From: Lysobacterales bacterium
GTDB lineage: Bacteria; Pseudomonadota; Gammaproteobacteria; Xanthomonadales; SZUA-38
DNA length: 64,000 bases
Direction of reading: 5' to 3'
Assembly (NCBI GenBank): GCA_045106555.1
Contig: JBGCET010000035.1
Location: forward strand, 3,551-67,550
The translations under genes and the position numbers were made by a program. Within the stretch, counting starts at the first letter, position 1, and each line of letters starts with the position of its first letter. Shown here one piece after another: positions 27,798 to 41,575 of this stretch. The notes beneath the pieces are model-generated. The model did no database searches and had not been told where the DNA came from. It saw only the letters and a program-made list of their open reading frames with translations.

Positions 27798-28007
27798 GAT
27801 TTCTCCGATGCCGACCGGCGGCATTTGTTGAGGTGACTAACAACAAGAGCATACAAGTTAACCACCCGCTTTGGCGACCGTCAGCCTTTATCCGCGGAAC
27901 GTTGATAGAATCCAGAACAAACACCACGTAAACAACGGCTGCTGGGGATTGGCGCAATGCCACTTTCCCGTTCAACGCCGGATCGACATATGGGGAAACA
28001 GGGGAAC

Positions 28008-29468
28008 ATGGCAAAGGTTATTGCGTTGGCACTGGTGCTGGCCGTCTGTTTGTTTGCCGGTGGCTATGAGTCCCAGCTGCAGGCGCTACTGGGAGTCAGC
28101 GACAATGCATCTGTGGCGACGGGGTTGAGTCAGTTCCTGCAGGTCTTGAGCTGGTTGGCTGGCGCGCTGCTGCTCAACGTGCTGATTCGCAAGCTGCTGT
28201 GGGAAGGCGCCGTGCGCCGCGCAATCGGCCACGATGTGCCGCTGCTGTTGATGCAGCTATCCAACGTTGCGGTGCTGTTTATCGTCATCTTGATCATCGT
28301 CCACAGCGTGTTCGATGCTAGCGTGCTGGGTTTTCTGACTGCCCTGGGCGCGGTTAGCGTGGTTATCGCCTTTGGTCTACGAGGCCTGGTGTCGGATCTG
28401 TTTACGGGCCTTGCGATCAACATTGAGCAACCGTTTCAGATTGGCGACTGGATCGCCTTTTACGATACCCAGGGCGGTCGCCACGTTGGCCAAGTCAAAC
28501 AAATCAACTGGCGAACCACCCACCTGGTGGCTGAGAACCAAAACTATCTGGTCATCCCTAATCGGGAAATTGGCGACTCCACCCTGATTAACTACTGGCG
28601 ACCGCGACACGCCAATCGCTTCGAGTTCACCCTGACCCTGGACTACGCCGTAGCGGTTGAGGAGGCTCGGCGAATTCTCCTGGCAGCTGTCACCTCAGTC
28701 ACTGACTCGCCAGGATTCGACAGCACCTTAAAGCCTCAAGTACTGATTGATGAGCTGGATGACGACGGCGTGCGTTATAAAGTTCGATATTGGATTAAGC
28801 CGTGGGACGGCACCTCACCCTCATTGTCCCGGGATCTGATTCAGACCCACATTCTCAAACACCTCAGGTTGGCAGGAATTACACCAGCCTATTCCAAGCT
28901 GGAGCACTTTCAGCAGCCCAAGCCCGAAGTGTTGACCGCAGGGACCCAGGCCCATTTGAGCATGCGTCAGATGTTGGGGCTAATGGAGTTCTTTGCTCCG
29001 CTGAACGACGATGAGCTTGATCAAGTCGTGGCTAAAAGCGCAACGGGTTCATGGCAGGAAGGTGACACTCTGTTAACTCAGGGGGAAGAAGGGGCCTCCA
29101 TGTTTGTTGTGCTGCAGGGATTGCTGGATGTGTGGCTGCAGTCTGAACAGGGAGAAGATATTCGAGTAGCGCGGATTGAGGCGGGAGAGTTTTTTGGCGA
29201 GATGTCTCTACTTACTGGCGCGCCGCGAGGCGCCACCATTCGCGCGGCAACACCGGTATTGACGCTGGAAATCACCAAGCCGGTAATGCAGGAGTTGCTG
29301 GCTGATCGTCCTTCTCTGGGAGAACGGATCTCCGAGGTGGTGGCCCGCCGCCAGCTTGCCACACAAAAAGCCACCGACCAGCACGCCAGTCGTAACGCGG
29401 ACGTGGACCCGCAAAACGCGGCAGCTCAGCTGTTTGGAAAAATTCGAACGTTTTTCAGTCAGTCCTGA
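28008..29468 (+). CDS. MscS-family mechanosensitive channel fused to a C-terminal cyclic-nucleotide-binding domain
   Basis: ATG at 28008 follows AGGGGAAC. MscS core is GLRGLVSDLFTGLAINIEQPFQIGDWIAF. cNMP domain is FFGEMSLLTGAPRGATIRA. Confidence 0.8.
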   Translation: MAKVIALALVLAVCLFAGGYESQLQALLGVSDNASVATGLSQFLQVLSWLAGALLLNVLIRKLLWEGAVRRAIGHDVPLLLMQLSNVAVLFIVILIIVHSVFDASVLGFLTALGAVSVVIAFGLRGLVSDLFTGLAINIEQPFQIGDWIAFYDTQGGRHVGQVKQINWRTTHLVAENQNYLVIPNREIGDSTLINYWRPRHANRFEFTLTLDYAVAVEEARRILLAAVTSVTDSPGFDSTLKPQVLIDELDDDGVRYKVRYWIKPWDGTSPSLSRDLIQTHILKHLRLAGITPAYSKLEHFQQPKPEVLTAGTQAHLSMRQMLGLMEFFAPLNDDELDQVVAKSATGSWQEGDTLLTQGEEGASMFVVLQGLLDVWLQSEQGEDIRVARIEAGEFFGEMSLLTGAPRGATIRAATPVLTLEITKPVMQELLADRPSLGERISEVVARRQLATQKATDQHASRNADVDPQNAAAQLFGKIRTFFSQS

Positions 29469-29519: not shown

Positions 29520-31592
29520 TTATTGAAGACTGCGCAACAGCGCCTGAATATTCCGGTTAGTGGGAAACGCCGACGCCAACTGCTGGGCGGTGGTACGGGC
29601 GGACTCCAGCTGACCCGCGTCCCGTTGCAGGGTGGCTAGCGCCCAACCAATGTCAAAGTCATCGGGAAAACGTTCACGGGCCTTCGCCATCAGCGGCAAC
29701 GCAGCAACAGCGTGGCCCGTTGAATTGAGCGCAATGGCGTAGACGTAGATGAATCGAGAATTGTCGGGTGCCAGACTCGAGGCCGTTTTTAACGCGCCCA
29801 AAGCGTCTGGAATACGTTTTTGACGAACCAGGAACAAGCCATAAGCGTGATGGGCTAAAGCCATCCCAGGCAGCACTCTCAGCGCGAGTTGGTAAGCATC
29901 CTCGGCGGCGTCAACATTGCCGGAGCGAGATTCAAGGTCTGCCAGTGCCAGCGCATTGCCTGGCAAAAAACCGTTGGAACGAAGACTGACTCTTGCTTCA
30001 TTCAGGGCGCCACGTAACGCCAGCGAACGCTCCATCGACAGCCGATTCTCGTCAGCTGCCAGCGCATTTGCTGCCTGGATCCGTACCGCCAGGATCGGGT
30101 CGGTCAGCAGCGGGCTGGCGAGCGCGACGCGGCTGGCCGGAGCAAGGGAAGTCACAGAACGTAAGGCGCCAATGCGCAGCAGCGGATTGGGGTCGACTAG
30201 GTGCAGCTCCATGACCTGGGTGGACATGACGCGGGCATCCAACATCGTGAGTGCGGTTGCCCGCACAATGTCTGGTGTTTGCGTATCACTGGCAACAGCA
30301 GCCAATCGCGCGTTGGCCCCTGGGGCGCCTGACCGTGCAGCAGCAAAAGCGCTGCCGAAGTGATCAGGTCGAGTGCCTGCGCCTGGTATTGCAAAGCTGT
30401 GATCTCGCCGGTTGTCAACGCCCATATAGGTGCGGCTTTTCATATGGCACTCCACACAGTTTCCCGCGGTTTCTGCCTGCGAAGACCCATGGTCCAGTTG
30501 GCCAAATCGGGCCGGCAGGTGGCATTGGGCACAGACGCCATTGGGGTTTGCCGGCGTTTTCAGTAGGGTGCTGTGGGGGTTGTGGCAATCGCTGCAGGTC
30601 ACACCGGCCTGATACATGCGGCTTTGCAGGAATGACCCGTAGACGTAAACTTCATCCCGAATCTGGCCGTCATCAAAGTACAGGTTGGCCTCCAGTAATG
30701 CGGGCTGATGGGTGTTGGTGAGAGGCTCGCCAAAGCGGTAATCCACACTGAGGGTACTACGCCTGGCATGACATCGGCCGCAGGCTTCCACTTGTTTAGG
30801 TGAGGCTGCGGGGAGGGAGCGCTGGGCGATTGCGGTATCAGCGTTCATGAGCCATTGAGCCTGGCCCCGGTCGTTCAGCGACAGGGCAAGGCCCAGGTCA
30901 GGCCGGAATTTTTCGGTCCGTGCCTGAGTCACGTGATCTGAGCCGGGTCCATGGCACCCCTCGCAGCCCACAGACACCTCCGAAAACGTTGTGTCAAAGG
31001 TGTTTTCGACGGGGTCGTAGTTCACCTTAAGGTTTGTCGAGTGACACTCGGCACACATCCCGTTCCAGTTAAACATGGGGCCGGCCCAATGCAGCTCATC
31101 GCCCGCCGGCGTGGTCTCATCCAGCAGAAGATCAAACCAGCGTTGTCCGCCCTGATCGGCGGTCCGGCTGTCCCAAGCCACGGTTAGGGCCTGTTTGCGT
31201 CCACCCGCGGTATCCACCAGATACTGTTGCAGCGGATACACGCCAAAGGTGTGGGTGATGGTAAATGTCTTTGGTTCTCCGGCAGTGTCGAACGTTCTGA
31301 TCTGGTATTGCCCGCCGTTGGTTTTGAAGTGAATCTCACCGGCGGAACTTTCGAAGGAATGATTGGCAAAGTTACCTAAAACGGATTGAGGTGTGGCCAC
31401 CTGCATCGCTAACTGATGATGGGAGCCTTGCCATTGCTCGTACGCATCGCTATGACACTCCCCACAAACTTCGCTGGTAACAAATTCCGCCGCCCACCCG
31501 CTGATGGGGCCAGCCAGTGCAAGTAGCCAAACCGCTAGCCATCGAGCTTTTCCCGGGAGTATTGTCTTACGCAAACTTATCGATAGCCTCAA
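29520..31592 (-). CDS. Periplasmic multiheme c-type cytochrome (7 CXXCH) fused to C-terminal TPR repeats
   Basis: Heme motifs CGECH, CAECH, CEGCH, CGRCH, CSDCH, CAQCH and CVECH fall in the first ~400 aa. The C-terminal ~280 aa are TPR-like. TTG start at 31592 (a second TTG at 31574). Signal WLAVWLLALAGPISGWA. Confidence 0.8.
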   Translation of the reverse strand: MRLSISLRKTILPGKARWLAVWLLALAGPISGWAAEFVTSEVCGECHSDAYEQWQGSHHQLAMQVATPQSVLGNFANHSFESSAGEIHFKTNGGQYQIRTFDTAGEPKTFTITHTFGVYPLQQYLVDTAGGRKQALTVAWDSRTADQGGQRWFDLLLDETTPAGDELHWAGPMFNWNGMCAECHSTNLKVNYDPVENTFDTTFSEVSVGCEGCHGPGSDHVTQARTEKFRPDLGLALSLNDRGQAQWLMNADTAIAQRSLPAASPKQVEACGRCHARRSTLSVDYRFGEPLTNTHQPALLEANLYFDDGQIRDEVYVYGSFLQSRMYQAGVTCSDCHNPHSTLLKTPANPNGVCAQCHLPARFGQLDHGSSQAETAGNCVECHMKSRTYMGVDNRRDHSFAIPGAGTRPDHFGSAFAAARSGAPGANARLAAVASDTQTPDIVRATALTMLDARVMSTQVMELHLVDPNPLLRIGALRSVTSLAPASRVALASPLLTDPILAVRIQAANALAADENRLSMERSLALRGALNEARVSLRSNGFLPGNALALADLESRSGNVDAAEDAYQLALRVLPGMALAHHAYGLFLVRQKRIPDALGALKTASSLAPDNSRFIYVYAIALNSTGHAVAALPLMAKARERFPDDFDIGWALATLQRDAGQLESARTTAQQLASAFPTNRNIQALLRSLQ

Positions 31593-32196
31593 TCAGCGCC
31601 TCTGGCGGCTGGGCGCCAACCAGCGCCGCCTTGCCGTCAAAGATAATGGTCGGGACGCCGGTTACGCCCATTTGCCGGTATTGCTCATCGATCTTGCGTA
31701 CCTCGCTCAAATCGCCTTCAAGAATCGATCGACAAACCTCTTCGCTGATGCCGCAGCCTGCTGACAGTTTAACCAGCGTGTCGTCATCGCCGATATCGAC
31801 CGCCGATACAAAAAATCCCTCAAGGATGTTTTCCTTCAGTTGATTTTGTCGTTCCCATTGGCCATCCAGGTGGTGCAGCAGGGTGTGGGATTTGAGCGTA
31901 TTGGGTTGACGGGTGATGGCGTCAAAGGCAAATGCCAAGCCCAGACTGGCGCCGACCTCTCTTAGCTGTTCCACCATTCCTGCCAGGCGGTCGCTGTTAC
32001 CGAACTTCTGTTTCCAGTGAGTTTCCCGATCCACACCTTCCAGCGGCATGTCCGGGTTGAGCTGAAACGGTTGCCAGCGACAGTCCACTGCCACCTCCGG
32101 GCGCGCAGCCAATGCGGCCTCCAGATGACGTTTGCCAACAAAACACCAGGGACACACGGTGTCGGAGACGATGTCGATTCGTAGCGGCTTGGTCAT
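31567..32196 (-). CDS. DsbA-family (FrnE/HCCA-isomerase-like) thiol oxidoreductase
   Basis: ATG at 32196. IDIVSDTVCPWCFVGKRHLE carries the CPWC active site. The 3' end overlaps the cytochrome gene start. Confidence 0.8.
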   Translation of the reverse strand: MTKPLRIDIVSDTVCPWCFVGKRHLEAALAARPEVAVDCRWQPFQLNPDMPLEGVDRETHWKQKFGNSDRLAGMVEQLREVGASLGLAFAFDAITRQPNTLKSHTLLHHLDGQWERQNQLKENILEGFFVSAVDIGDDDTLVKLSAGCGISEEVCRSILEGDLSEVRKIDEQYRQMGVTGVPTIIFDGKAALVGAQPPEALIEAIDKFA

Positions 32197-32394
32197 ATTC
32201 TGCTCACGGTAGGTTCTTCGGCAGTTTGGTGGCAAATCGTTTCAAAGGCAAAAGTTGCATGCCTATTTGTGTATACCCAAATTCGCCTGGTGCACGTTTG
32301 GGCAAACCCTGGTTCTCCTCACGGCATGGCCGACAGGGCCGGCCGAACCCTACCATTTGACGCAAATGACCCAATCCCCTTTGAGGTGCGCTGA

Positions 32395-34680
32395 ATGTCA
32401 CACAAATTACTGAAAACCCCGTTACCTGCGTGCGTGGCGCTGGCGCTAAGTATGCCGGCAGCCGCTCAGCTGGAAGAGATTGTTGTGACCGCGCAAAAGC
32501 GCGAGGAAGGGTTGCAGGATACGGCCATTGCCGTCACCGCCTTTACCGCTGGAGCGATCGAGAACAAAAATATCGTTGATATCTCTGAGTTGGCAAACTT
32601 CACACCTAACCTGGTGTTTGATACGACCTCCCCGGTGAGCGGCCTGTCGTCTGGTGCGGTGATCTTTATCCGCGGCATTGGCAATACCGATTTCAGTCTG
32701 ACTACCGACCCGGGTGTGGGCACCTACGTAGACGGTGTCTATCTGTCCCGCTCTGCCGGCGGCGTTTTTGACGTGTTGGATATCGAGCGCATTGAGGTCC
32801 TTCGGGGTCCCCAGGGGACGTTGTTTGGCCGTAACACCATTGGTGGCGCGATGAGCATCACCTCGCGCAAGCCGGGCCGGGAACTCAGTGGCAGCCTCTC
32901 TGCAACCGCCGGCAATTTTTCGCGCTTTGACGTGCGGGGGTCGCTGGATGTGCCCGTTTCAGAAAAGCTGCTCACCAGTTTTGTGTTTTCCCGAAAATCC
33001 GCCGACGGCTATGTGGATCGGGTGCTCGCCGGTGGTGAGCTGGGTGACCAGGATCGGATCGCGTTTCGTGCCAAAGCCGTGTACGAAGCCACCGACAATC
33101 TCGACTTCCAGTTGACTTACGATTACACAAAAATTGATGAGAACAGTGCAGCGTCAGTCATCCTCGGGTTCACGCCGGGTGCCAGCACCATTGGTTACGA
33201 TCTGTTCCGCGCAGCGTTTGCTCCAGACCTTCCGCCGGTGACAGACTTCTTGCGTAACCCTGAAGATGACGTCAGCTTTACTGATGGACCTACCGGCACT
33301 GACCTTGATTTGAACGGTGTATCGTTCAGCGCAACCTATACAGCCGATAGCTGGGCGCTGAAGTACATAGGCGGATTTCGCGATACCGACGGATCGTTCA
33401 ACCGCGACCCTGATAACACCCCGATCGCCATCACCCACACCTTTAATCCTGAGTATGAGCATGAACAAACCAGCCACGAGCTGCAGTTGACAGGCAACAT
33501 CGGCGATCGACTGCAATACATCGCTGGTGCCTACTTTTTTGAGGAAGACGGCACCGACAACGTGTTTGTGCCCATATTTCTTCCCAACGTTGACGACCCG
33601 GCCAATCCCTTTGGGTTTCCCGCAGCGGTGAATAACTTTGCCACCGTAGACAACTCCAGCGACGCGTTTTTTCTGCAGGGCACCTATGACATAACCGATA
33701 CCGTTTCGGTGACAGCAGGCATTCGTAAAACCGATGACGACAAAGGTTTTCGCTACACCCAGTACATCGCAGCCGATATCGACGGCAATCCGTTGCCAGT
33801 GCCGCTGTCGGCGGTCGACGAAAACGGCAACCTGACCCCAGGGTTAATTCCTATCGTCGGAAACGGTAGCGGCAATGAAACCATTTCCTTTGACGAGACC
33901 ACCGTTCGCCTTGGCCTGGACTGGGCATTTCAAGACAATGCGTTGGTCTACTACAACTACTCAGAAGGTTTTAAGAGTGGCGGCTTTGTCCTGCGCTACG
34001 TTGAGGCCCGACCGGCGCCGCTGACCTTCGACCCTGAGTTTGTTGAGTCCCATGAGATTGGTTTGAAATGGCAGGGTTTTGATGACCGCGTAAGAGTCAA
34101 TACGGCGATTTTTTCCATGGACTATCAGGATGCCCAGGTGACGTTTTTCGACAACCTGGGCGGACCCATTACGGCGAACGCCGGCAGCGTAGACATAACC
34201 GGCTTGGAGTTAGAGGTTACCGCTCTGGTGACAGATAACCTGCTGCTGGAGCTGGCTTACGGATACACCGACGCAGAATATCAGTCGATTCGACCTATCG
34301 GGGGGCTGTCACTAACCATTGATGAAACCGCCAGCCTGGTGAATACGCCAGAAAACTCGCTGCAGCTGGGCGCTGAATACTCCTGGCTGCTGTCCGGTGG
34401 CGGCGATCTGACACTCCGAGGTGACTATATTTACACCGACGATATTTTCAACGATTCACAAAACTCACCGTTTCTGTTCCAAGATGCCTACGACATGGTC
34501 AACCTGGCGCTGTCCTACACGGCTAGCGATGAACGTTGGAGCCTCACCGGGTTCGTCAAGAACGCCACTGACGAGCGATTTATTACCAGTGGAGATTCCA
34601 ATTTCGGTTTGGGCTTTCACGAAGGTAACCTGAATCGACCGCGAGAATACGGCCTGCGTCTGAACTACAACTTTAACTGA
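32395..34680 (+). CDS. TonB-dependent outer-membrane receptor
   Basis: Signal peptide. Plug region LEEIVVTAQKREEGLQDTAIAVTAF and IEVLRGPQGTLFGRNTIGGAMSI. 761 aa barrel. Confidence 0.9.
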   Translation: MSHKLLKTPLPACVALALSMPAAAQLEEIVVTAQKREEGLQDTAIAVTAFTAGAIENKNIVDISELANFTPNLVFDTTSPVSGLSSGAVIFIRGIGNTDFSLTTDPGVGTYVDGVYLSRSAGGVFDVLDIERIEVLRGPQGTLFGRNTIGGAMSITSRKPGRELSGSLSATAGNFSRFDVRGSLDVPVSEKLLTSFVFSRKSADGYVDRVLAGGELGDQDRIAFRAKAVYEATDNLDFQLTYDYTKIDENSAASVILGFTPGASTIGYDLFRAAFAPDLPPVTDFLRNPEDDVSFTDGPTGTDLDLNGVSFSATYTADSWALKYIGGFRDTDGSFNRDPDNTPIAITHTFNPEYEHEQTSHELQLTGNIGDRLQYIAGAYFFEEDGTDNVFVPIFLPNVDDPANPFGFPAAVNNFATVDNSSDAFFLQGTYDITDTVSVTAGIRKTDDDKGFRYTQYIAADIDGNPLPVPLSAVDENGNLTPGLIPIVGNGSGNETISFDETTVRLGLDWAFQDNALVYYNYSEGFKSGGFVLRYVEARPAPLTFDPEFVESHEIGLKWQGFDDRVRVNTAIFSMDYQDAQVTFFDNLGGPITANAGSVDITGLELEVTALVTDNLLLELAYGYTDAEYQSIRPIGGLSLTIDETASLVNTPENSLQLGAEYSWLLSGGGDLTLRGDYIYTDDIFNDSQNSPFLFQDAYDMVNLALSYTASDERWSLTGFVKNATDERFITSGDSNFGLGFHEGNLNRPREYGLRLNYNFN

Positions 34681-34691
34681 GGAATTCGTGC

Positions 34692-35720
34692 ATGAGTGAC
34701 CAACCCCAACTGGTGAAAGCCGCCGCGGTACAGGCAGCGCCTGCGTTCATGGACCTCAAGGCGTCGGTGGAAAAAACGTGCGACTACATCGCAATGGCAG
34801 CGGGACAGGGCTGTGACCTTGTGGCCTTTCCCGAGACCTGGATTCCCGGTTATCCCTGGTACATTTGGCTCAATGCCACTGCCCTGAACATGAAATATTT
34901 TGGTCAGTACCACGCCAACTCCCTGGCCATTGGCAGCGATGAATACGAGACCATTGCTCAGTGTGCCAAGCAACACAACATTTACGTGTCGTTGGGCGCG
35001 AGCGAGCGCGACCATGGCTCTTTGTATATCGCCCAGTTTCTGTTCGGCCGCGACGGGCAAACGCTGGCCACCCGCCGCAAACTCAAACCCACCCACATGG
35101 AGCGCACGGTGTATGGCGATGGCGACGGTTCAGATCTCAAAGTAACCGAAACCGATATTGGCAATATTGGGCAACTGGCCTGCTGGGAGCATCTTCAGCC
35201 CTTAAATCGGTACGCCATGTTCAGCCTGCATGAACAAATTCACGTGGGTGCCTGGCCCTCGTTTAGCATGTATCCCGAGGCGCATGCGTTGGGGCCAGTA
35301 GTGAATACTGCGGCATCATTGACCTACGCGGTGGAGGGAAGTTGTTTTGTTGTTGCCCCTTGCGGCGTGATCTCCCAGGAAATGGTGGACGCCCTGGTAG
35401 AAAACGAAACCCACGCTGCGCTCATGAAAAAAGGCGGCGGTCACGCGCGGATATACGCTCCTGACGGCAGTGCTATGGGAGCCAATATTGACCCGGAAGA
35501 AGAGGGGCTGGTGGTGGCTGACCTGGACTTAAGCGCCATTACCATTGCCAAGTGCTTTGCTGACCCGGTGGGGCACTACTCCCGACCGGACGCCACCGCT
35601 TTACTGTGGAATCAGCAGCCGATGACGCCCACTCGCCCTATGGCCGGTGCCCTACGCGTTGCCAGTCAGACAGACAACGGCGAGGATTGTCCGGCGGACG
35701 GCGACAGCGGTGCCGAGTAG
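34692..35720 (+). CDS. Nitrilase (carbon-nitrogen hydrolase superfamily, branch 1)
   Basis: The E-K-C triad contexts are VAFPETWIPGYP, RRKLKPTH and GQLACWEHLQPL. 342 aa. Confidence 0.85.
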   Translation: MSDQPQLVKAAAVQAAPAFMDLKASVEKTCDYIAMAAGQGCDLVAFPETWIPGYPWYIWLNATALNMKYFGQYHANSLAIGSDEYETIAQCAKQHNIYVSLGASERDHGSLYIAQFLFGRDGQTLATRRKLKPTHMERTVYGDGDGSDLKVTETDIGNIGQLACWEHLQPLNRYAMFSLHEQIHVGAWPSFSMYPEAHALGPVVNTAASLTYAVEGSCFVVAPCGVISQEMVDALVENETHAALMKKGGGHARIYAPDGSAMGANIDPEEEGLVVADLDLSAITIAKCFADPVGHYSRPDATALLWNQQPMTPTRPMAGALRVASQTDNGEDCPADGDSGAE

Positions 35721-35733
35721 CTCCCCGCTGGCG

Positions 35734-36744
35734 ATGAACCGGGTTCAAGCATACGATGAGTCTATGAAATTTGTGATTCGCAACGGTTACCAGAAGGACG
35801 TTGACGACCTTAAGGGCATGTCCCGTTGGGAATACTGGTGCGATGTGGTTAATCACGAGTTTGTGAATCTGGACTGCTCGGCAATCCCCGGTCAGGACAA
35901 AAGTGATTTCAGCGGAACGCTGCGAGGGGGGCTGGGCGTTGGTCAGGTCAATTTTTCTGAGGTGGTGGCTATGCCTCAATTTGTTCAGCGATCGCGGCAA
36001 CGGATTGCCCGCGCGACCAAAGACGATTTTCTCATCAGCTTCCAGCTGGAACGCGAATGCGTGGTGCGCCAATCGGGCCGCGAAGCGCTGCTAAAACCCG
36101 GTAGTTTTGCGCTCTACGACAGCGCGTCGGAATACTCTCTGGCGTTTGCTCGCCCATTCCACCAGTTCGTTTTGCAGATGCCCCGAGATGTGTTGTCTCG
36201 GCATCTGATGGAGCCTGAGAAGTATACCGCCATTCCCATCAGCGCCAATGAAGGAATGGGGCTGATACTGAAGAACTTTCTTTACTCCCTGGTGGGCGAA
36301 CTCAGCGCTACCGACGAACCGATCAACGACCAGCTGTCCGACAATCTGGTCAACATGATTGCGCTAACCTTCAGTTCAACGGTCATCACCAGCAAATTGA
36401 TTGAGACCGACTGCGTCAAAGAAGCGCTGATGCGAAGGTTGCGTCAGTTCATCGACAACAATCTGTTCGACCCCCGATTGAATAACGCGCGCATTGCGGA
36501 ATCTCAGAACATCAGTGTGCGCTACCTCTACAAGCTGTTCTCCGGTGAAGCTGAATCCGTTCACGAGATGATCATGCGCAAGCGGCTGGAGGCTTCCAGG
36601 GCGATATTGATGGATGAGCACACGCGTAGGCCCTCCATCGAAAGCCTGGCACATCACGTAGGTTTTGCCAGTGCCGCCCATTTTTCCCGAGCCTTCAAAA
36701 AGCGCTTCGGCGCCAGTCCCAGCGACGTATCGCCTCAGGCATGA
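35734..36744 (+). CDS. AraC-family transcriptional regulator (effector-binding N-domain + HTH)
   Basis: The maximal ORF (35647) would overlap the nitrilase gene by 74 nt; ATG codons at 35734 or 35764 avoid this. C-terminal HTH is ARIAESQNISVRYLYKLF...GFASAAHFSRAFKKRFG. Confidence 0.8.
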   Translation: MNRVQAYDESMKFVIRNGYQKDVDDLKGMSRWEYWCDVVNHEFVNLDCSAIPGQDKSDFSGTLRGGLGVGQVNFSEVVAMPQFVQRSRQRIARATKDDFLISFQLERECVVRQSGREALLKPGSFALYDSASEYSLAFARPFHQFVLQMPRDVLSRHLMEPEKYTAIPISANEGMGLILKNFLYSLVGELSATDEPINDQLSDNLVNMIALTFSSTVITSKLIETDCVKEALMRRLRQFIDNNLFDPRLNNARIAESQNISVRYLYKLFSGEAESVHEMIMRKRLEASRAILMDEHTRRPSIESLAHHVGFASAAHFSRAFKKRFGASPSDVSPQA

Positions 36745-36781
36745 AAAGGCGTGTTCAATCCGCAATTCACAGGGTAAGACC

Positions 36782-37822
36782 ATGACGCAAAGTACTACCG
36801 GTAATCGCACCTACTCGCTGAAGATGCCCGACGGCTGGGAGCCGCCTTATCCGTCGTTCATGTCCGAATTTGACGACAATAGAACGACGGTGGTGATGTG
36901 CTTGATGGGGTGCCAATACGATGAGGGCCATCGTCCCGACGCGCTGGCTCTGGTTCAACAGCTGAGAGCGCTGATGCTGGAATTTGGCCAGGCGGCCTAT
37001 GTGGACTTATCCGAATGTGAGGCCGACAGTGCAGGGCGACGGCAACTCGTGGCCACGGGCTATTGGTTTGAACCCGAACCTTTGCGCCGTTTGTTTGAGT
37101 CTGAGGGGTTTACTCAAACTTGGGGTGCCCATACCCAGGCGGATCTTCCTTATGGCGTGTTTCGTGAGGTATTCAACTTTCCCATGAGTCGGTTCGAGAC
37201 CCTGCATTCCGGTCCGGATCATCTGGTGGGTATTGCCAATGTGCGCGACGGCATTACCGAGCCTATTCCCCGCCATGCCTATTGGGGCAGCATGCGCGAT
37301 CGAATACCGGACGCAGCCATTGACCGGTTTGAGGCCAACGAGCGCGTCCAGGTGCTGGATCAAGATGCTCACAGCGTGACCATTCGGCCTAACGTGAATC
37401 TGGCCATTATCCGCTCTGGCCAGGACATCACTGACGCGGTGGACGAGGAACGCGCTCAGTACTCCAACGATGTTGAGCCAACCCTGGTTAACGGCATGAA
37501 CTTTCTGCGCGACGAAGGCGAGGAGGTGAAGTGTTATGACTGCCGATTTTTCCGCTTTGTCGATGAGCACGGGGAACCGTCAGACCATACGTACGGCTAT
37601 GCGTATTTTCAGTCGCTTGAGGAGCTGGAAAAGTGGGCTGAGCATCATCCCTCTCACAACGCCATCTTTGGTTCTTTCTTAGAGTTTGCACCCAAGTATG
37701 GCGAGGACATGCGCTCACGGTTTTGGCACGAAGTCGCGGTGCTGCCGGCAGACGATCAGTTTGCTCAGTATGTGAACTGCGCCGAGGGCACCGGGCTGTT
37801 GGGTGGCCTGAACCCCCGATAG
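36782..37822 (+). CDS. oxd: Aldoxime dehydratase (heme enzyme, Oxd family)
   Basis: ATG at 36782. Blocks HAYWGSMRDR, LAIIRSGQD, EPTLVNGMNFLRDEG, LEKWAEHHPSH and FWHEVAVL..YVNC match the Oxd family as I recall OxdA/OxdB. Length 346 aa. Confidence 0.8.
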   Translation: MTQSTTGNRTYSLKMPDGWEPPYPSFMSEFDDNRTTVVMCLMGCQYDEGHRPDALALVQQLRALMLEFGQAAYVDLSECEADSAGRRQLVATGYWFEPEPLRRLFESEGFTQTWGAHTQADLPYGVFREVFNFPMSRFETLHSGPDHLVGIANVRDGITEPIPRHAYWGSMRDRIPDAAIDRFEANERVQVLDQDAHSVTIRPNVNLAIIRSGQDITDAVDEERAQYSNDVEPTLVNGMNFLRDEGEEVKCYDCRFFRFVDEHGEPSDHTYGYAYFQSLEELEKWAEHHPSHNAIFGSFLEFAPKYGEDMRSRFWHEVAVLPADDQFAQYVNCAEGTGLLGGLNPR

Positions 37823-37854
37823 CCAGCCGATAGCGCTCGCAGTATCATAAAAAA

Positions 37855-38364
37855 ATGATTGAGACTGAACGCCTGATTCTTCGCCCGGTAGATCCAGACA
37901 AAGATTTTGATGGCTGGGCCAAAGCCATGGCCGATGCCAACACCATGAAGTACCTTGGGTCCGCGCCGTTGGATCGGGCCAAGGCCTGGCGCAATATGGC
38001 GATGGTGATGGGTCACTGGCAAATTCGCGGTTTCGGGTTTTTCTCTGTAGAAGAAAAAACCACTGGCGATTGGGTTGGCCGAGTCGGGCCATGGTATCCA
38101 GTGGGCTGGCCGAAAGCCGAAGTAGGCTGGCTCACCTCACCAGAACATCTGCGGCGAGGTTTCGCGGCAGAAGCGGCCAAGGCCAGCATTCAGTATGCGT
38201 TTGGCGAGTTAGGCTGGCCCGAGGTGACGCATGTCATTTTGGATGGCAACGTCGCCAGCGTTTCGGTGGCGGAGAAAGTCGGGTCGCGGTACATTCAAAC
38301 GCTGCAAGGATTACCTGGCGTCACCGATACCCCGGTGCACGTGTACGGGCAGCAACGCCCGTAA
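37855..38364 (+). CDS. GNAT-family N-acetyltransferase (RimJ/RimL-like)
   Basis: The MIETERLILRPV start and the GFGFFSV / G-W segments are typical of Acetyltransf_3. Confidence 0.75.
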   Translation: MIETERLILRPVDPDKDFDGWAKAMADANTMKYLGSAPLDRAKAWRNMAMVMGHWQIRGFGFFSVEEKTTGDWVGRVGPWYPVGWPKAEVGWLTSPEHLRRGFAAEAAKASIQYAFGELGWPEVTHVILDGNVASVSVAEKVGSRYIQTLQGLPGVTDTPVHVYGQQRP

Positions 38365-38386: not shown

Positions 38387-40363
38387 TTACAGTGCGCTTG
38401 CCACGCGATGGCCTTCGCCGGTAGCCGCTAGAACTGTTCGCGGAGCGGCGCAGTCGCCGATACGAATCACCTCAACACCTGCTTCAACGAGCGGATTTAG
38501 CAATGCCACGTTGGGCACTCTTGGGCCGGCGTAGGTAATGGCCACCACGTTGTCGACCATTTGCTGATTGCCCGTGTAAACGTTGCGCAGAGCCAGTTGG
38601 GCTTCACCCAGGTCGTCCAGGTTAATAGGTTCGACGCAGGTAATCAGTTCGATGTTCTTGTCATGCAATCGCTGGTAGATCCCTTGGCGGTTGATCAGCG
38701 AAACGTCTGATGCAAAGCGCTCTCGGGATGTGATCAGCACCACCTGTTCGAACAAGCCGGCGAACAATTCCGCGGCGGCGTAGGTCATTTCCGTGTGATC
38801 GCTGTCCACCACCACCAGGGCGCCGTCAGTGGGGGTAGGGCGTGCAAGCATCTGGGCCGAAAGCTCGCGGACGTCGGGAATCATCTCTGCCCAGTCCGGA
38901 TCGAGCCAGGCGGGCAGGGCGGTCGTAGAGCCCGTGGCCAAAAGCACCGTGTCAGGTTCCAGGTCGAGCACGCTGGCTGCCGTCGCAGGCCCCTCTAAGA
39001 TGTACTGAACCCCCGCGCGTTGTCCCGCCAGGTACTGATAGTCGTAAATACTGCTGAGATTTTCGCCGCCGGGAAGGTCAGCATGAATTCGGGTTTTGCC
39101 GCCAAACTCTGCTGAGCTGCCAAGGACGGTCACCTGATGGCCTCGGGCGGCGGCCACGTGGGCAGCCTCAAGACCGGCGATACCGGCGCCCACCACCACA
39201 ACCTTTCGCGGATTCGCTGAGGGCGCCGGCTGCCATATTTCCTCTGCCGGCTCACCCACCCTGGGGTTGTTGTCGCAGCGCAGCTGATTGCCCTCAATAA
39301 TGGCTCTCCAGCAGGTGTTGCAGGACACGCAGTAACGAATGGTGGCTTCCTGCCCGTGTTGCGCCTTGTTGCCAAACGCGGCGTCAGTGATGAGGGGGCG
39401 GCCAAGAAAGGCAATCTCGGCGGTACCGTCGGTGAGGGCTTTTTCACATTCGTTGGGGTCGGTCATATAACCGATGGCGCCGGTGGCAATGCTCGGGTCG
39501 GCCTGGCGCAGATCTTTGATGGTGTCTAAATACGGGTGACGCTCGCCGTGAGCATCCGGTAAATGTTTGTACAGTGAGTTGGCGTGAGCGCCCCAGCAAA
39601 ACGTCCAGTAACTGAAGTTACCGTTGGCCGCCACCTGTTTGGCGATGTCGGCTGCCAGGCTAAGGTTGATGCTGCCGGGTATGCCGTCGTCTCCCGGCAG
39701 CTTAATGCCAATGATGAAGTTTTCGCCGCAGGTTTGGCGTACGGCATTTATCAGTTCGCACAGCAGATTACAGCGTCGCTGGTGGTCACCGCCGTAGTGG
39801 TCATCACGTCGGTTGCTCCAAGGGGACAGAAACTGATGAAAAATATGGCCGTGTCCGGCAGAGATTTCTACCCCGGAAAACCCGGCGCGCTGAAGCCGCA
39901 GGCTGGACTCAGCCCACTGCTCAATGAGACTGCGTATTTCGTCTTCAGTCAGGGCCCGCGGTACGGTCCAGCTTAAATCATCGGGCAAGGCCGATGCGCT
40001 AACGGCTGAGTCGTTTCGGCCAATGGAGTGACGTCCCCGTCCAGGGTCCTGGATCTGGCCCAGCAGCCGCGTATCGGCAGACTCGACCACCTCGGCCACC
40101 TGTTTCAGACCGTCCATGGCCACATCGTCGTAAACCCGAAGTTTGCCCGCGTCCGGGTTATGCCGGGTCATGGCCAGTGGCTCGGTGACGATCAAGCCGG
40201 TTCCGCCGCGGGCACGGGCTCCCAGGTAGTTCAGCATGGCTTCGCTGGGCCGGCCGTCACTGACCAGTCGGGTCAAAATAGAGGCATGGGCCAGACGGTT
40301 GCGCAGATGATGTCCGGACAGGGTTAGGGAACTAAAGAGAGTGGGGTAAATTGTGTCGCTCAT
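38387..40363 (-). CDS. Old-yellow-enzyme-type FMN oxidoreductase fused to an FAD/NAD(P)-binding domain (2,4-dienoyl-CoA-reductase-like)
   Basis: 658 aa. N-terminal TIM barrel (LFSSLTLSGHHLRNRLAHAS, GFSGVEISAGHGHIFHQFLSP). Cys cluster CVSCNTCW..C. Dinucleotide fold VVVVGAGIAGLEAAHVAAARGHQV. Confidence 0.8.
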   Translation of the reverse strand: MSDTIYPTLFSSLTLSGHHLRNRLAHASILTRLVSDGRPSEAMLNYLGARARGGTGLIVTEPLAMTRHNPDAGKLRVYDDVAMDGLKQVAEVVESADTRLLGQIQDPGRGRHSIGRNDSAVSASALPDDLSWTVPRALTEDEIRSLIEQWAESSLRLQRAGFSGVEISAGHGHIFHQFLSPWSNRRDDHYGGDHQRRCNLLCELINAVRQTCGENFIIGIKLPGDDGIPGSINLSLAADIAKQVAANGNFSYWTFCWGAHANSLYKHLPDAHGERHPYLDTIKDLRQADPSIATGAIGYMTDPNECEKALTDGTAEIAFLGRPLITDAAFGNKAQHGQEATIRYCVSCNTCWRAIIEGNQLRCDNNPRVGEPAEEIWQPAPSANPRKVVVVGAGIAGLEAAHVAAARGHQVTVLGSSAEFGGKTRIHADLPGGENLSSIYDYQYLAGQRAGVQYILEGPATAASVLDLEPDTVLLATGSTTALPAWLDPDWAEMIPDVRELSAQMLARPTPTDGALVVVDSDHTEMTYAAAELFAGLFEQVVLITSRERFASDVSLINRQGIYQRLHDKNIELITCVEPINLDDLGEAQLALRNVYTGNQQMVDNVVAITYAGPRVPNVALLNPLVEAGVEVIRIGDCAAPRTVLAATGEGHRVASAL

Positions 40364-40430: not shown

Positions 40431-40748
40431 ATGACCACTATTGTTGTTCTGTTTAATTTAAAAAGTGATGCTGATGCTCAGGCCTATGAGCAATGGGCCA
40501 GAACCACAGATCTTCCCACCGTTCGTGGTCTAAAGGGCGTGGATGGTTTTGATGCATTCCGCACGACTGGCCTGCTGGGTAAAGACGGTCAGGCAGCCCC
40601 GTATCAGTACGTTGAGATGATTGAAATCAGCGACATGGAGGCCTTTGGCGCGGAATGTGCCACTGACACCATGCGCAAGGTGGCCGGAGAATTCCAGGCG
40701 TTTGCCGACGGGCCTTGCTTCATGCTGAGCGAGCGGCTGGACGGATGA
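40431..40748 (+). CDS. Small dimeric alpha/beta-barrel protein (REDY/HapK- or EthD-like)
   Basis: 105 aa, with a GAGGAG RBS. The pattern is IVVLFNLKSDADAQAYEQWARTTDLPTVRGL...YQYVEMIEI. Confidence 0.5.
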   Translation: MTTIVVLFNLKSDADAQAYEQWARTTDLPTVRGLKGVDGFDAFRTTGLLGKDGQAAPYQYVEMIEISDMEAFGAECATDTMRKVAGEFQAFADGPCFMLSERLDG

Positions 40749-41575
40749 AGCCACTGAAAGGAAAGGTTGCAGTGTGCACAGGTTCGGGCCGACAGCTGGG
40801 GCTGGGGCAAGGAATTTTGAAACGCCTGGCGGAGCAGGGCGCCAGCGTTGTGGTGACCGATATTGGTCGAACGGACGGCGCCTTATCGGCAGATAACGTG
40901 GGCGCCAGCGATGAAATGGAACAGGTGGCCCAGGAACTGCGGGATGCCGGTGCCCAGGCCATCGCGGTGGCCTGTGATGTGCGCAGCGAAGAACAGATTG
41001 ATCGTTTGGTCGAGACCACGGTCGGTGAGTTCGGTCGGCTGGACATCATGGTGAACAACGCCGGTGTAGGTTATTTGATGCAGCCTCTGGAAGAGGTGAC
41101 GGCAGAAAACTGGCGTTTGGTGATCGACATAAATCTCACCGGGGCTTTTCTCTGCACCAAAGCCGCGGCGATCCAGATGCGCAAGCAGGGTGATGGCGGG
41201 CGAATCGTCAATATCGCCAGTCAGGCAGCGAAGTCGGGCTTTCCCCATTTGCCCGCCTATGTCGCTTCAAAGCATGGCATGGTGGGGCTGACTCGCGCGA
41301 CGGCTATCGAACTGGCGCCGGATCAAATCACTGTCAACGCGGTGTGTCCAAACCACGTCACCACCGGGCTTGGGGCGAAACAAAATGAGTACTTTGCTCG
41401 CTATCGAGGTGTGTCGGTGGAAGAGTATCGCGCCAACCTGAAGGCCCGCATTCCGCTAGGGCGAGTGGGTCTGGTGGAAGACACGGCAGCGGCCACGGCG
41501 TTTCTGTGTTCTGACGATGCGGCGTTTATTACCGGTGAGGCGATGAATGTCAGCGGCGGTGAAGAAATGCACTGA
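40745..41575 (+). CDS. Short-chain dehydrogenase/reductase (SDR)
   Basis: The start overlaps the upstream stop (ATGA at 40745..40748). Cofactor motif TGSGRQLGLG. NNAG. Catalytic YVASKHG. Confidence 0.85.
   Translation: MKPLKGKVAVCTGSGRQLGLGQGILKRLAEQGASVVVTDIGRTDGALSADNVGASDEMEQVAQELRDAGAQAIAVACDVRSEEQIDRLVETTVGEFGRLDIMVNNAGVGYLMQPLEEVTAENWRLVIDINLTGAFLCTKAAAIQMRKQGDGGRIVNIASQAAKSGFPHLPAYVASKHGMVGLTRATAIELAPDQITVNAVCPNHVTTGLGAKQNEYFARYRGVSVEEYRANLKARIPLGRVGLVEDTAAATAFLCSDDAAFITGEAMNVSGGEEMH

Follow-up and report, generated by a model that had tools for sequence, protein, structure and literature searches.

The locus lies within a window of 64,000 nucleotides (the whole stretch of DNA analysed) from a Lysobacterales bacterium, for which the search gave 'plant metagenome' as the sole habitat label and no marine one. 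Five genes follow one another on its + strand: a TonB-dependent receptor (TBDR; positions 32395-34680, 761 aa), an arylacetonitrilase-like nitrilase (34692-35720, 342 aa), a FeaR-like regulator of the AraC family (35734-36744, 336 aa), a predicted aldoxime dehydratase (Oxd), a heme enzyme (36782-37822, 346 aa), and a GNAT acetyltransferase (37855-38364, 169 aa; Acetyltransf_3, Pfam E 4e-30). The coordinates of the original prediction all hold in an open reading frame check of the window, and the 11-nt gap that it described between receptor and nitrilase is exact: the receptor's TGA ends at 34680, the nitrilase ATG lies at 34692, and the spacer between them (34681-34691, + strand) carries an AGGA ribosome-binding motif 8 nt ahead of that ATG. 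The regulator most likely starts, as judged from its sequence, at the ATG at 35734, 13 nt past the nitrilase stop; this start was chosen from alignment with relatives in the genus. The nit, AraC and oxd genes are thereby separated by spacers of 13 nt and 37 nt, and the locus has the make-up of an aldoxime-nitrile cluster, namely oxd linked on one strand to a regulator of the AraC type and an enzyme that converts nitriles. A promoter and terminator scan returned nothing over the shuffled expectation, and no terminator-like site was found in any spacer of the block. The receptor-nitrilase spacer has the identical 11-nt length in loci L001 and L003; in L002 and L035, a MITE-like insert breaks it, measuring 279-543 nt in genomes G002 and G006, so tight coupling of receptor and nitrilase is not essential, and we count this against reading the block as an operon. 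An 18-nt block (32290-32307, + strand), located ~90-105 nt upstream of the receptor start and kept in the alignment of the window with L001, L003 and L035, is a candidate operator or promoter element. The window contains it a single time, and 2.8 matches are expected by chance when <=3 mismatches are allowed, so the pattern alone is not significant. On the left flank, L003 and L035 have an ankyrin-repeat gene where the window and L001 have DsbA, and the block begins at the receptor in both arrangements. At the other end, the GNAT gene also follows oxd in L002 and L035 and is absent beside the cluster from all 80 metagenome loci; it is a genus-specific appendage.

The two enzymes and the regulator fall into the families that had been predicted for them. 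The nitrilase matches CN_hydrolase (PF00795) with E 4e-49 and 167.6 bits against a cut-off of 23.2, and no signal peptide was seen on it by eye. Residues E48, K130, E137 and C164 are all present, and the triad claimed to be intact is found in E48, K130 and C164, which we take to be the Glu-Lys-Cys positions. Among solved structures, the enzyme comes closest to NitA (6zby; E 7.5e-110 over residues 7-314), presumably the arylacetonitrilase of Pseudomonas fluorescens EBC191, with which it shares the catalytic residues and, judging from this likeness, may share the substrate range. The Nit6803-family model (equivalog TIGR04048) gave 251.6 bits against 502.6 and was rejected, the enzyme being nearer NitA. 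The regulator between nitrilase and Oxd has AraC_binding_2 and HTH_18 domains (Pfam); with 145.8 bits against a cut-off of 199 in the FeaR equivalog model (NF007243), it is FeaR-like, not FeaR. The Oxd matches PF13816 over profile positions 2-310 of 310 (E 3.7e-77; 260.2 bits, cut-off 25) and can be aligned with OxdRE (3a15, E 1.4e-63) and OxdA (3w08). The available parts of PMC4835899 and PMC5391958 give His299 as the proximal heme ligand of OxdA and Ser219, His320 and Arg178 as distal residues; the equivalents here are H292, S212, H316 and R174. Family model and conserved catalytic residues thus agree on a probable aldoxime dehydratase, and the protein, at 278 bits against a cut-off of 600, is not an exact OxdA equivalog (NCBIfam).

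Upstream of these genes, the receptor combines a Plug domain (residues 40-152, E 3e-17) with a TonB_dep_Rec_b-barrel domain (residues 262-723, E 1e-38) in Pfam, that is, the N-terminal plug and C-terminal 22-strand barrel domain that characterise a TBDR. By eye, its N-terminus is signal-peptide-like and is followed by a TonB-box-like EEIVVTA; genome G000 has 13 TonB_C matches. Among solved structures it has no close relative (best E 1.5e-13), and no fewer than 119 other sequence clusters, 55-86% identical, belong to its clade, all under generic names. Some relatives are called 'iron complex outermembrane receptor protein' in their sources, the best NCBIfam match of the receptor, a weak one, is a siderophore-receptor subfamily (158 bits), and Oxd is a heme protein according to the available part of PMC4835899, all of which would fit a receptor that supplies iron or heme to Oxd. 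However, those 158 bits lie below the cut-off of 223.5, and the receptor reaches the cut-off of no NCBIfam siderophore, heme or B12 receptor model (TIGR01783, 158 against 223.5; TIGR01785, 56.7 against 316.85; TIGR01779, 60.8 against 599.7 bits). It also stays with the metal-free nitrilase in L044 and L048, which lack Oxd, the accompanying regulator is an AraC protein of the small-molecule-sensing kind, and no Fur-box-like site was found upstream of the receptor, where the best site matches the consensus at 9/19 positions, less than the window mean of 9.9. We regard iron or heme supply as a very improbable function of this receptor.

In no fewer than six deep lineages, members of the receptor clade adjoin nitrilase, Oxd and AraC genes, the opposite of a receptor syntenic with nit and oxd in no relative, which the original prediction had named as grounds for its own refutation. 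A TBDR tree of 36 rows groups the 15 nitrilase- or Oxd-adjacent receptors in a single clade (SH-aLRT 100), to which none of the 20 unlinked receptors belongs. A metagenome scan of 80 loci gave the same division: nitrilase and/or Oxd is adjacent at all nine loci where the receptor is matched nearly in full, at 49-65% identity, and at none of the 67 loci with a receptor identity of <=41%. Among 401 sampled Gammaproteobacteria genomes, with clade membership set at E<=1e-140, the clade was detected in three (G000, G393 and G394) and in none of the other 398; G393 and G394 represent two other families and carry TBDR-nit-oxd-AraC on one strand. The best receptor paralogues within the window's own order reach <=42% identity. 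In the genus, the block is present in G001, G002, G004 and G006, while G003 (95% complete) has no receptor orthologue, no nitrilase and no Oxd; the receptor is gained or lost jointly with nitrilase and Oxd. Receptor, nitrilase and regulator have been passed on as a unit. The nitrilase tree gathers 13 of its 14 linked rows into a single clade (support 94), the linked nitrilase of L046 not being resolved from unlinked ones, and the regulator is 49-56% identical to those of the distant receptor-linked loci L034, L040, L042, L044 and L048. Its identities (56% to L048, about 50% to L034, L042 and L044, 34-35% to L033 and L047) track the receptor tree. The third enzyme is variable, being drawn from two Oxd lineages or replaced by a PPOX-type flavoprotein; the Oxd of the window belongs to a different lineage from the Oxds of sister receptor-linked loci, and L044 and L048 keep TBDR-nit-AraC without any Oxd. 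The predicted coupling of the receptor to a nitrilase-Oxd pair therefore stands as far as the depth of the linkage is concerned, but its constant partners are the nitrilase and the AraC regulator, not Oxd.

The genes of the block stand in different orders in different lineages, the receptor-nitrilase spacer tolerates inserts, and the aldoxime-nitrile pathway is found elsewhere without a receptor. These observations would suit adjacency without shared function, the receptor being a passenger on a mobile block or merely sharing a promoter. Against this, the linkage has been kept through divergence to about 49% identity in six lineages, and the receptor has a clade of its own that is absent from unlinked loci (0/67 in the metagenome, 0/398 in the genomes); we consider a passenger role unlikely. 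No TBDR lies within 18-20 kb of nine Oxd clusters of other Pseudomonadota, so the pathway works without one, and in genus g447 (nit-oxd type) none of the four sampled loci has a TBDR within 20 kb. The nit-nitR(AraC)-oxd clusters of Bacillus sp. OxB-1 and Bradyrhizobium sp. LTSPM299, as far as the available parts of PMC8955678 and PMC1199592 describe them, contain the same nitrilase, AraC-family regulator and Oxd genes and lead from aldoxime via nitrile to acid and ammonia; no outer-membrane receptor is described there, whereas a member of a dedicated TBDR clade precedes the nitrilase here. The cluster type of Pseudomonas chlororaphis B23, listed in the available part of PMC8955678 as oxd, amidase, nitrile hydratase and activator, resembles the locus in grouping Oxd with a nitrile-converting enzyme and an AraC regulator, but has nitrile hydratase and amidase instead of nitrilase. 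In 4/4 nitrile-hydratase-type Oxd clusters examined, the B23-type loci L032, L132, L133 and L134, a different outer-membrane barrel gene (PF13557), not a TonB-dependent receptor, adjoins oxd; an outer-membrane gate of its own thus recurs in the aldoxime-nitrile pathway. The PF13557 barrel Pput2725 has 12 strands, according to the accessible text of PMC5406399. DdvT of Sphingobium sp. SYK-6, a TBDR for a lignin-derived aromatic dimer, is described in the available part of PMC6874591 as serving aromatic carbon catabolism, not iron, and as encoded beside catabolic genes; it differs in substrate class and pathway and provides a precedent for TBDR uptake of a small aromatic compound. In the literature searched, no paper ties a TonB-dependent receptor to the aldoxime-nitrile pathway, in agreement with the earlier claim that TonB-dependent uptake had not been linked to it. 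The words 'transport', 'receptor' and 'membrane' are absent from the available part of a 2022 review (PMC8955678), as are 'TonB', 'outer membrane' and 'receptor' from that of Podar 2005 (PMC1199592).

We propose that the locus is probably an aldoxime-nitrile catabolic operon with an outer-membrane uptake step of its own. The TBDR, powered by the TonB system, would bring the pathway substrate, an aldoxime and/or the matching nitrile, over the outer membrane. The AraC regulator would sense the compound or its product and switch the block on. Cytoplasmic Oxd would then dehydrate the aldoxime to the nitrile, the nitrilase would convert the nitrile into a carboxylic acid (phenylacetate) and ammonia, and phenylacetate would enter the phenylacetate (paa) pathway of the genome. 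We infer that the receptor carries the pathway substrate, that this substrate is most likely of the arylacetaldoxime/arylacetonitrile type, e.g. phenylacetaldoxime or phenylacetonitrile, that it crosses the inner membrane and that the block forms a single transcript. The clues, which are indirect and drawn from sequence comparison, point to a route from phenylacetaldoxime or phenylacetonitrile to phenylacetate: a nitrilase that is NitA-like by E-value only, a FeaR-like regulator, paa genes and, in L048, a downstream MFS gene. Directly upstream of the receptor, L041 encodes PaaX and a true PaaK (729 bits against a cut-off of 646), and the genome G000 has PaaK (703 bits) and PaaA/C. The block has no conserved inner-membrane transporter, which counts against the proposal; MFS genes, of different MFS types, occur only in L047, L048, L002 and L003, the one downstream in L048 being aromatic-acid/H+ symporter-like and below the NCBIfam symporter cut-off.

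Phenylacetaldoxime and phenylacetonitrile are small (~120-135 Da), so a TonB-driven gate is not obviously needed for them, which we count against the import of such substrates. The cargo of TonB-dependent receptors is usually scarce or bulky, as would be the case if the receptor imported some other, or larger, natural product bearing a nitrile or oxime group and the nitrilase and the Oxd or PPOX-type protein acted on that product or its aglycone. Such a product might be a cyanogenic glycoside, a glucosinolate-derived nitrile, indole-3-acetaldoxime, indole-3-acetonitrile or another metabolite. Variation of the third enzyme while receptor, nitrilase and regulator stay would fit a family of related precursors, not one aldoxime, and the run label 'plant metagenome' suits plant defence compounds. 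However, the conserved genes of the block include none for a glycosidase, a sulfatase or a myrosinase-like enzyme, and the adjacency of PaaK and PaaX in L041 together with the NitA-like nitrilase indicates plain arylacetonitriles; import of a natural product of this kind is possible and, in our judgement, rather doubtful. A broader extension of the proposed uptake operon is offered just as tentatively. TBDR, nitrilase and AraC might form an old mobile three-gene core, with nitriles and aldoximes as a new TonB-dependent substrate class. Its nitrile-making slot would be interchangeable, occupied by either of two unrelated Oxd lineages or, on two independent occasions, by a 221-aa PPOX-type flavoprotein that would be either a non-homologous stand-in for Oxd or a converter of a different precursor to the same nitrile.

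The aldoxime-nitrile pathway has been studied mostly for its nitrile-chemistry enzymes and for the interplay of plants and bacteria, and substrate entry into Gram-negative cells is not addressed in the literature searched. The attachment of a receptor to the known two-enzyme aldoxime route, here and in many distant bacteria, suggests active scavenging. Two cultured species are among the source names of the receptor-clade clusters, which makes the idea testable, and the PPOX-type flavoprotein is a candidate new enzyme of nitrile metabolism. If the clade serves the pathway, a likely substrate class would be provided for at least 119 further receptor clusters. If the proposed uptake is true, nitrogen-bearing plant and algal defence metabolites would join the short list of non-iron TonB cargos, and these bacteria would presumably obtain carbon and nitrogen by scavenging such compounds from low concentrations.

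A tandem run of five genes on the forward strand occupies positions 32395 to 38364 of the window, in a 5.2-Mb metagenome-assembled genome (G000) that is 94% complete. The first (32395-34680, +) encodes a TonB-dependent receptor of 761 amino acids with plug and barrel domains; its N-terminus, read by eye, is signal-peptide-like and is followed by the TonB-box-like stretch EEIVVTA. The receptor stop ends at 34680 and, after a spacer of only 11 nt, the nitrilase gene starts at 34692 with AGGA ahead of it (34692-35720, +; CN_hydrolase, E 4e-49). An AraC-family regulator with AraC_binding_2 and HTH_18 domains follows on the same strand, and alignment with its relatives in the genus indicates that its start is most likely the ATG at 35734, 13 nt past the nitrilase stop. 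The aldoxime dehydratase (Oxd) gene (36782-37822, +; PF13816, E 3.7e-77) and a GNAT acetyltransferase gene (37855-38364, +) complete the block. The nitrilase retains E48, K130, E137 and C164, and its nearest solved relative is NitA (entry 6zby, E 7.5e-110), followed by cyanide dihydratases at about 1e-65. The Oxd aligns over its full length to OxdRE (3a15) and OxdA (3w08) and keeps R174, S212, H292 and H316, the equivalents of Arg178, Ser219, His299 and His320, whose roles are described in the available portions of PMC4835899 and PMC5391958. No signal peptide was seen by eye in the nitrilase or the Oxd, and both should therefore be cytoplasmic. The receptor has no close relative among solved structures (best E 1.5e-13). 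In a consensus scan for promoters and terminators, site counts did not exceed those of shuffled sequence and none fell in the spacers. The enzyme calls of the original prediction were sound, and its description of the block, from the coordinates and the 11-nt spacer to the catalytic residues, was borne out in every detail that sequence can show.

Within the genus, the block behaves as a unit. Receptor orthologues of 85-91% identity are present in five of the six other species, outside of which the best match reached no more than 42% in the 61 genomes searched. The order receptor-nitrilase-AraC-Oxd recurs in three loci of the relatives (L001, L003 and L035), and a fourth (L002) carries the C-terminal end of the receptor at its contig end, then the nitrilase, AraC and Oxd genes. 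The left flank comes in two forms, with DsbA and multiheme cytochrome genes shared by the window and L001 and an ankyrin-repeat gene shared by L003 and L035; in both contexts the block starts at the receptor, and an 18-nt stretch upstream of it (window 32290-32307) is kept. This stretch was considered as a repeated operator and rejected, as it occurs once in the window. In one species (G003, 95% complete) the receptor orthologue, nitrilase and Oxd are all absent together; in another, fragmented genome (G005) the receptor is cut at a contig end, the nitrilase lies on a small contig and the Oxd was not found. Further observations concern the flank itself. At window 29520-32235 (-), the gene for a 690-aa protein that combines multiheme cytochrome c motifs with TPR repeats in one fusion overlaps the DsbA-like gene by 26 nt, a pair also found ahead of the block in L001, and an MscS-type mechanosensitive channel with a fused C-terminal cyclic-nucleotide-binding domain is encoded at 27957-29468 (+).

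The linkage extends well beyond the genus. Oxd is rare: of the 401 Gammaproteobacteria genomes sampled, 4 have a full-length PF13816 match. G393 and G394 are among them and come from two further families; each has the order receptor-nitrilase-Oxd-AraC on a single strand, and their receptors share 52% and 49% identity with that of the window, above any paralogue in the window's own order. A receptor search of an equally large sample of the class gave matches at E<=1e-140 in exactly G000, G393 and G394. The fourth Oxd genome, G436, has a Pseudomonas-type cluster with nitrile hydratase and amidase. An OYE/FadH-like gene downstream of the window block (38387-40363, -) was considered as a shared partner, and the resemblance proved to be coincidence, the OYE that follows the block in G393 being only 24% identical. 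This flavoenzyme and an SDR at 40715-41575 (+) each scored best against mycofactocin-system models, at 428 and 219 bits respectively, both below cut-off.

Metagenomes were also scanned, with an alignment of six receptors as the query. The 80 loci obtained were compared with the window proteins by tblastn, and the best ten were annotated with Pfam. Wherever the receptor matched over nearly its full length at 49-65% identity, nitrilase and/or Oxd was present (9 of 9 loci, L040-L048); the nitrilase directly follows the receptor in seven, the contig ends within the receptor in the other two, and Oxd occurs in five. None of the 67 loci whose receptor was at most 41% identical had a nitrilase or Oxd at E<=1e-8. 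This tally excludes four loci: L055, L084 and L118, which hold the plug only, at contig ends (47-67% identity), and L051, which was counted neither for nor against. The L051 receptor is 51% identical on one segment and falls just outside the clade; in L051:1083-5675 the genes after it encode a divergent CN_hydrolase of formamidase/amidase-like type (E 1e-25) and a response regulator, an arrangement that may represent a second, separate receptor-amidohydrolase pairing. We built a receptor tree of 36 rows, 16 labelled as linked to nitrilase and/or Oxd genes and 20 as unlinked; the latter comprised the three best genome paralogues, the six best-matching unlinked metagenome loci and 11 full-length loci of about 30% identity, the other unlinked loci being left out. 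Fifteen linked receptors form one clade (SH-aLRT 100) of about six deep branches, with all 20 unlinked rows and L051 outside. Where L046 and L047 overlap they do not differ, and the two probably represent a single arrangement, MFS-oxd-AraC-receptor-nit. The receptor clade takes in at least 119 more sequence clusters at 55-86% identity, every one of them generically named; the cultured species Kineobactrum salinum and Pseudoteredinibacter isoporae, at 60% identity, are among their sources. No receptor of any type lies within 18-20 kb of nine Oxd loci from other Pseudomonadota: four nit-oxd loci belonging to a single genus, four nitrile-hydratase/amidase-type loci, and the divergent nit-oxd locus of G524. 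The receptor is thus characteristic of one variant of the cluster. The original prediction, that outer-membrane import is coupled to the aldoxime-nitrile pathway, was to fall if the receptor was not syntenic with the enzyme genes in any relative. Synteny was found in the genus, in G393 and G394 and in metagenome loci L040-L048; the cluster is real, its enzyme calls are sound and the prediction survives this test. That the receptor is a mere hitch-hiker is hard to square with linkage so specific to one clade.

The nitrilase and the regulator share the history of the receptor more closely than the Oxd does. In a nitrilase tree built without the divergent, very long-branched L051 hydrolase, 13 of the 14 rows with a linked receptor group in a single clade (support 94), and the L046 nitrilase has an unresolved placement beside unlinked nitrilases. 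The AraC regulators are orthologous across linked loci and their identities track the receptor tree: that of the window is 56% identical to L048, 53% to a partial copy in L040, 49-52% to L034, L042 and L044, and 34-35% to L033 and L045-47, and only 24-26% identical to Pseudomonas-type regulators. The Oxd of the window's genus groups with those of unlinked clusters (support 98), and the Oxds found in sister receptor loci make up a clade of their own (support 99); the gene order is nit-AraC-oxd in the window, whereas it is nit-oxd-AraC in the sister loci. Two loci without Oxd, each of which has an Oxd-bearing locus as its sister in the receptor tree, hold a 221-aa PPOX-type flavoprotein in the slot between nitrilase and AraC (L044:10637-11302 and L048:10580-11245; PNPOx_N match, TIGR04025-like but below cut-off), the two copies being 67% identical. 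We conclude that receptor, nitrilase and regulator are the stable core, and that the third enzyme was exchanged several times. The PPOX-type protein was rejected as a general partner of nitrilases, since eight distant homologues in other genomes (39-46% identity) are unlinked, with no nitrilase, Oxd, TonB-dependent receptor or AraC gene within 1.5 kb. Its family counts 6291 members at E<=1e-10, none with more than a generic name, its PDB match is weak (2htd, E 0.0016), and an Atlas search added nothing. The Oxd-free loci also bear on whether the receptor supplies iron or heme for the Oxd. This is unlikely, because the receptor keeps with the metal-free nitrilase where Oxd is absent and stays under the curated cut-off of every NCBIfam siderophore, heme and B12 receptor model, and because no site resembling the Fur-box consensus lies upstream of it.

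We propose that the block is an inducible catabolic unit, in which the receptor would carry the substrate over the outer membrane, Oxd would form the nitrile, and the nitrilase would yield acid and ammonia. The clues point to phenylacetaldoxime or phenylacetonitrile as the substrate and phenylacetate as the product, a reading that rests on the NitA-like nitrilase, the FeaR-like regulator (145.8 bits, below the model cut-off of 199), an aromatic-acid symporter-like MFS gene in L048, and L041:3-2160, where the receptor-nitrilase pair is directly preceded by genes for a PaaX regulator and a true phenylacetate-CoA ligase, PaaK (729 bits against a cut-off of 646). G000 encodes PaaK and PaaA/C elsewhere and has 13 TonB_C matches. 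A look-up of sequencing runs that contain this DNA gave three DNA runs, all of one study, and no RNA run. Their only habitat label, 'plant metagenome' (two of the runs may be the assembly source), fits plant-made aldoximes and is not independent evidence. It is quite possible that the receptor cargo is larger or different, such as a cyanogenic glycoside, a glucosinolate product or indole compounds, although no glycosidase is conserved in the block. Against uptake of an aldoxime or nitrile by the receptor stand the small size of the proposed substrates, the lack of an inner-membrane transporter conserved in the block, and the interruption of the receptor-nitrilase spacer in two species of the genus, by 279 and 543 nt. 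Both inserts contain a MITE-like element, about 270 nt long and bounded by 17-nt terminal inverted repeats (L035:4483-4761 and L002:379-921, the latter with a second insert of about 265 nt nested in it), a repeat absent from the window. That a TonB-dependent receptor can take up a small aromatic compound for catabolism has a precedent in DdvT, according to the available text of PMC6874591. In each of the four nitrile-hydratase/amidase-type clusters examined, oxd has a PF13557 (Phenol_MetA_deg) outer-membrane barrel gene as its immediate neighbour (L032:10598-11467, L132:10863-11732, L134:8173-9039 and L133:10335-11747); Pput2725, a PF13557-like protein of solved structure, forms a 12-stranded barrel and is grouped under transport proteins in the accessible part of PMC5406399. 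By analogy, this parallel supports the idea that the pathway may need an outer-membrane gate of its own.

As far as the available parts of PMC8955678 and PMC1199592 describe them, the clusters of Bacillus sp. OxB-1 and Bradyrhizobium match the nit-AraC-oxd part of the window. The main text of the 2022 review (PMC8955678), in its accessible portion, mentions no membrane component, the words 'transport', 'receptor' and 'membrane' being absent, and 'TonB', 'outer membrane' and 'receptor' are likewise absent from the accessible text of Podar 2005 (PMC1199592). We found no literature tying TonB-dependent or outer-membrane uptake to aldoximes, nitrilases or phenylacetonitrile, in a search that left subscription journals mostly uncovered, and an earlier mention is possible. 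What appears to be new is that a known pathway comes with a dedicated, widespread clade of receptors and a modular third enzyme.
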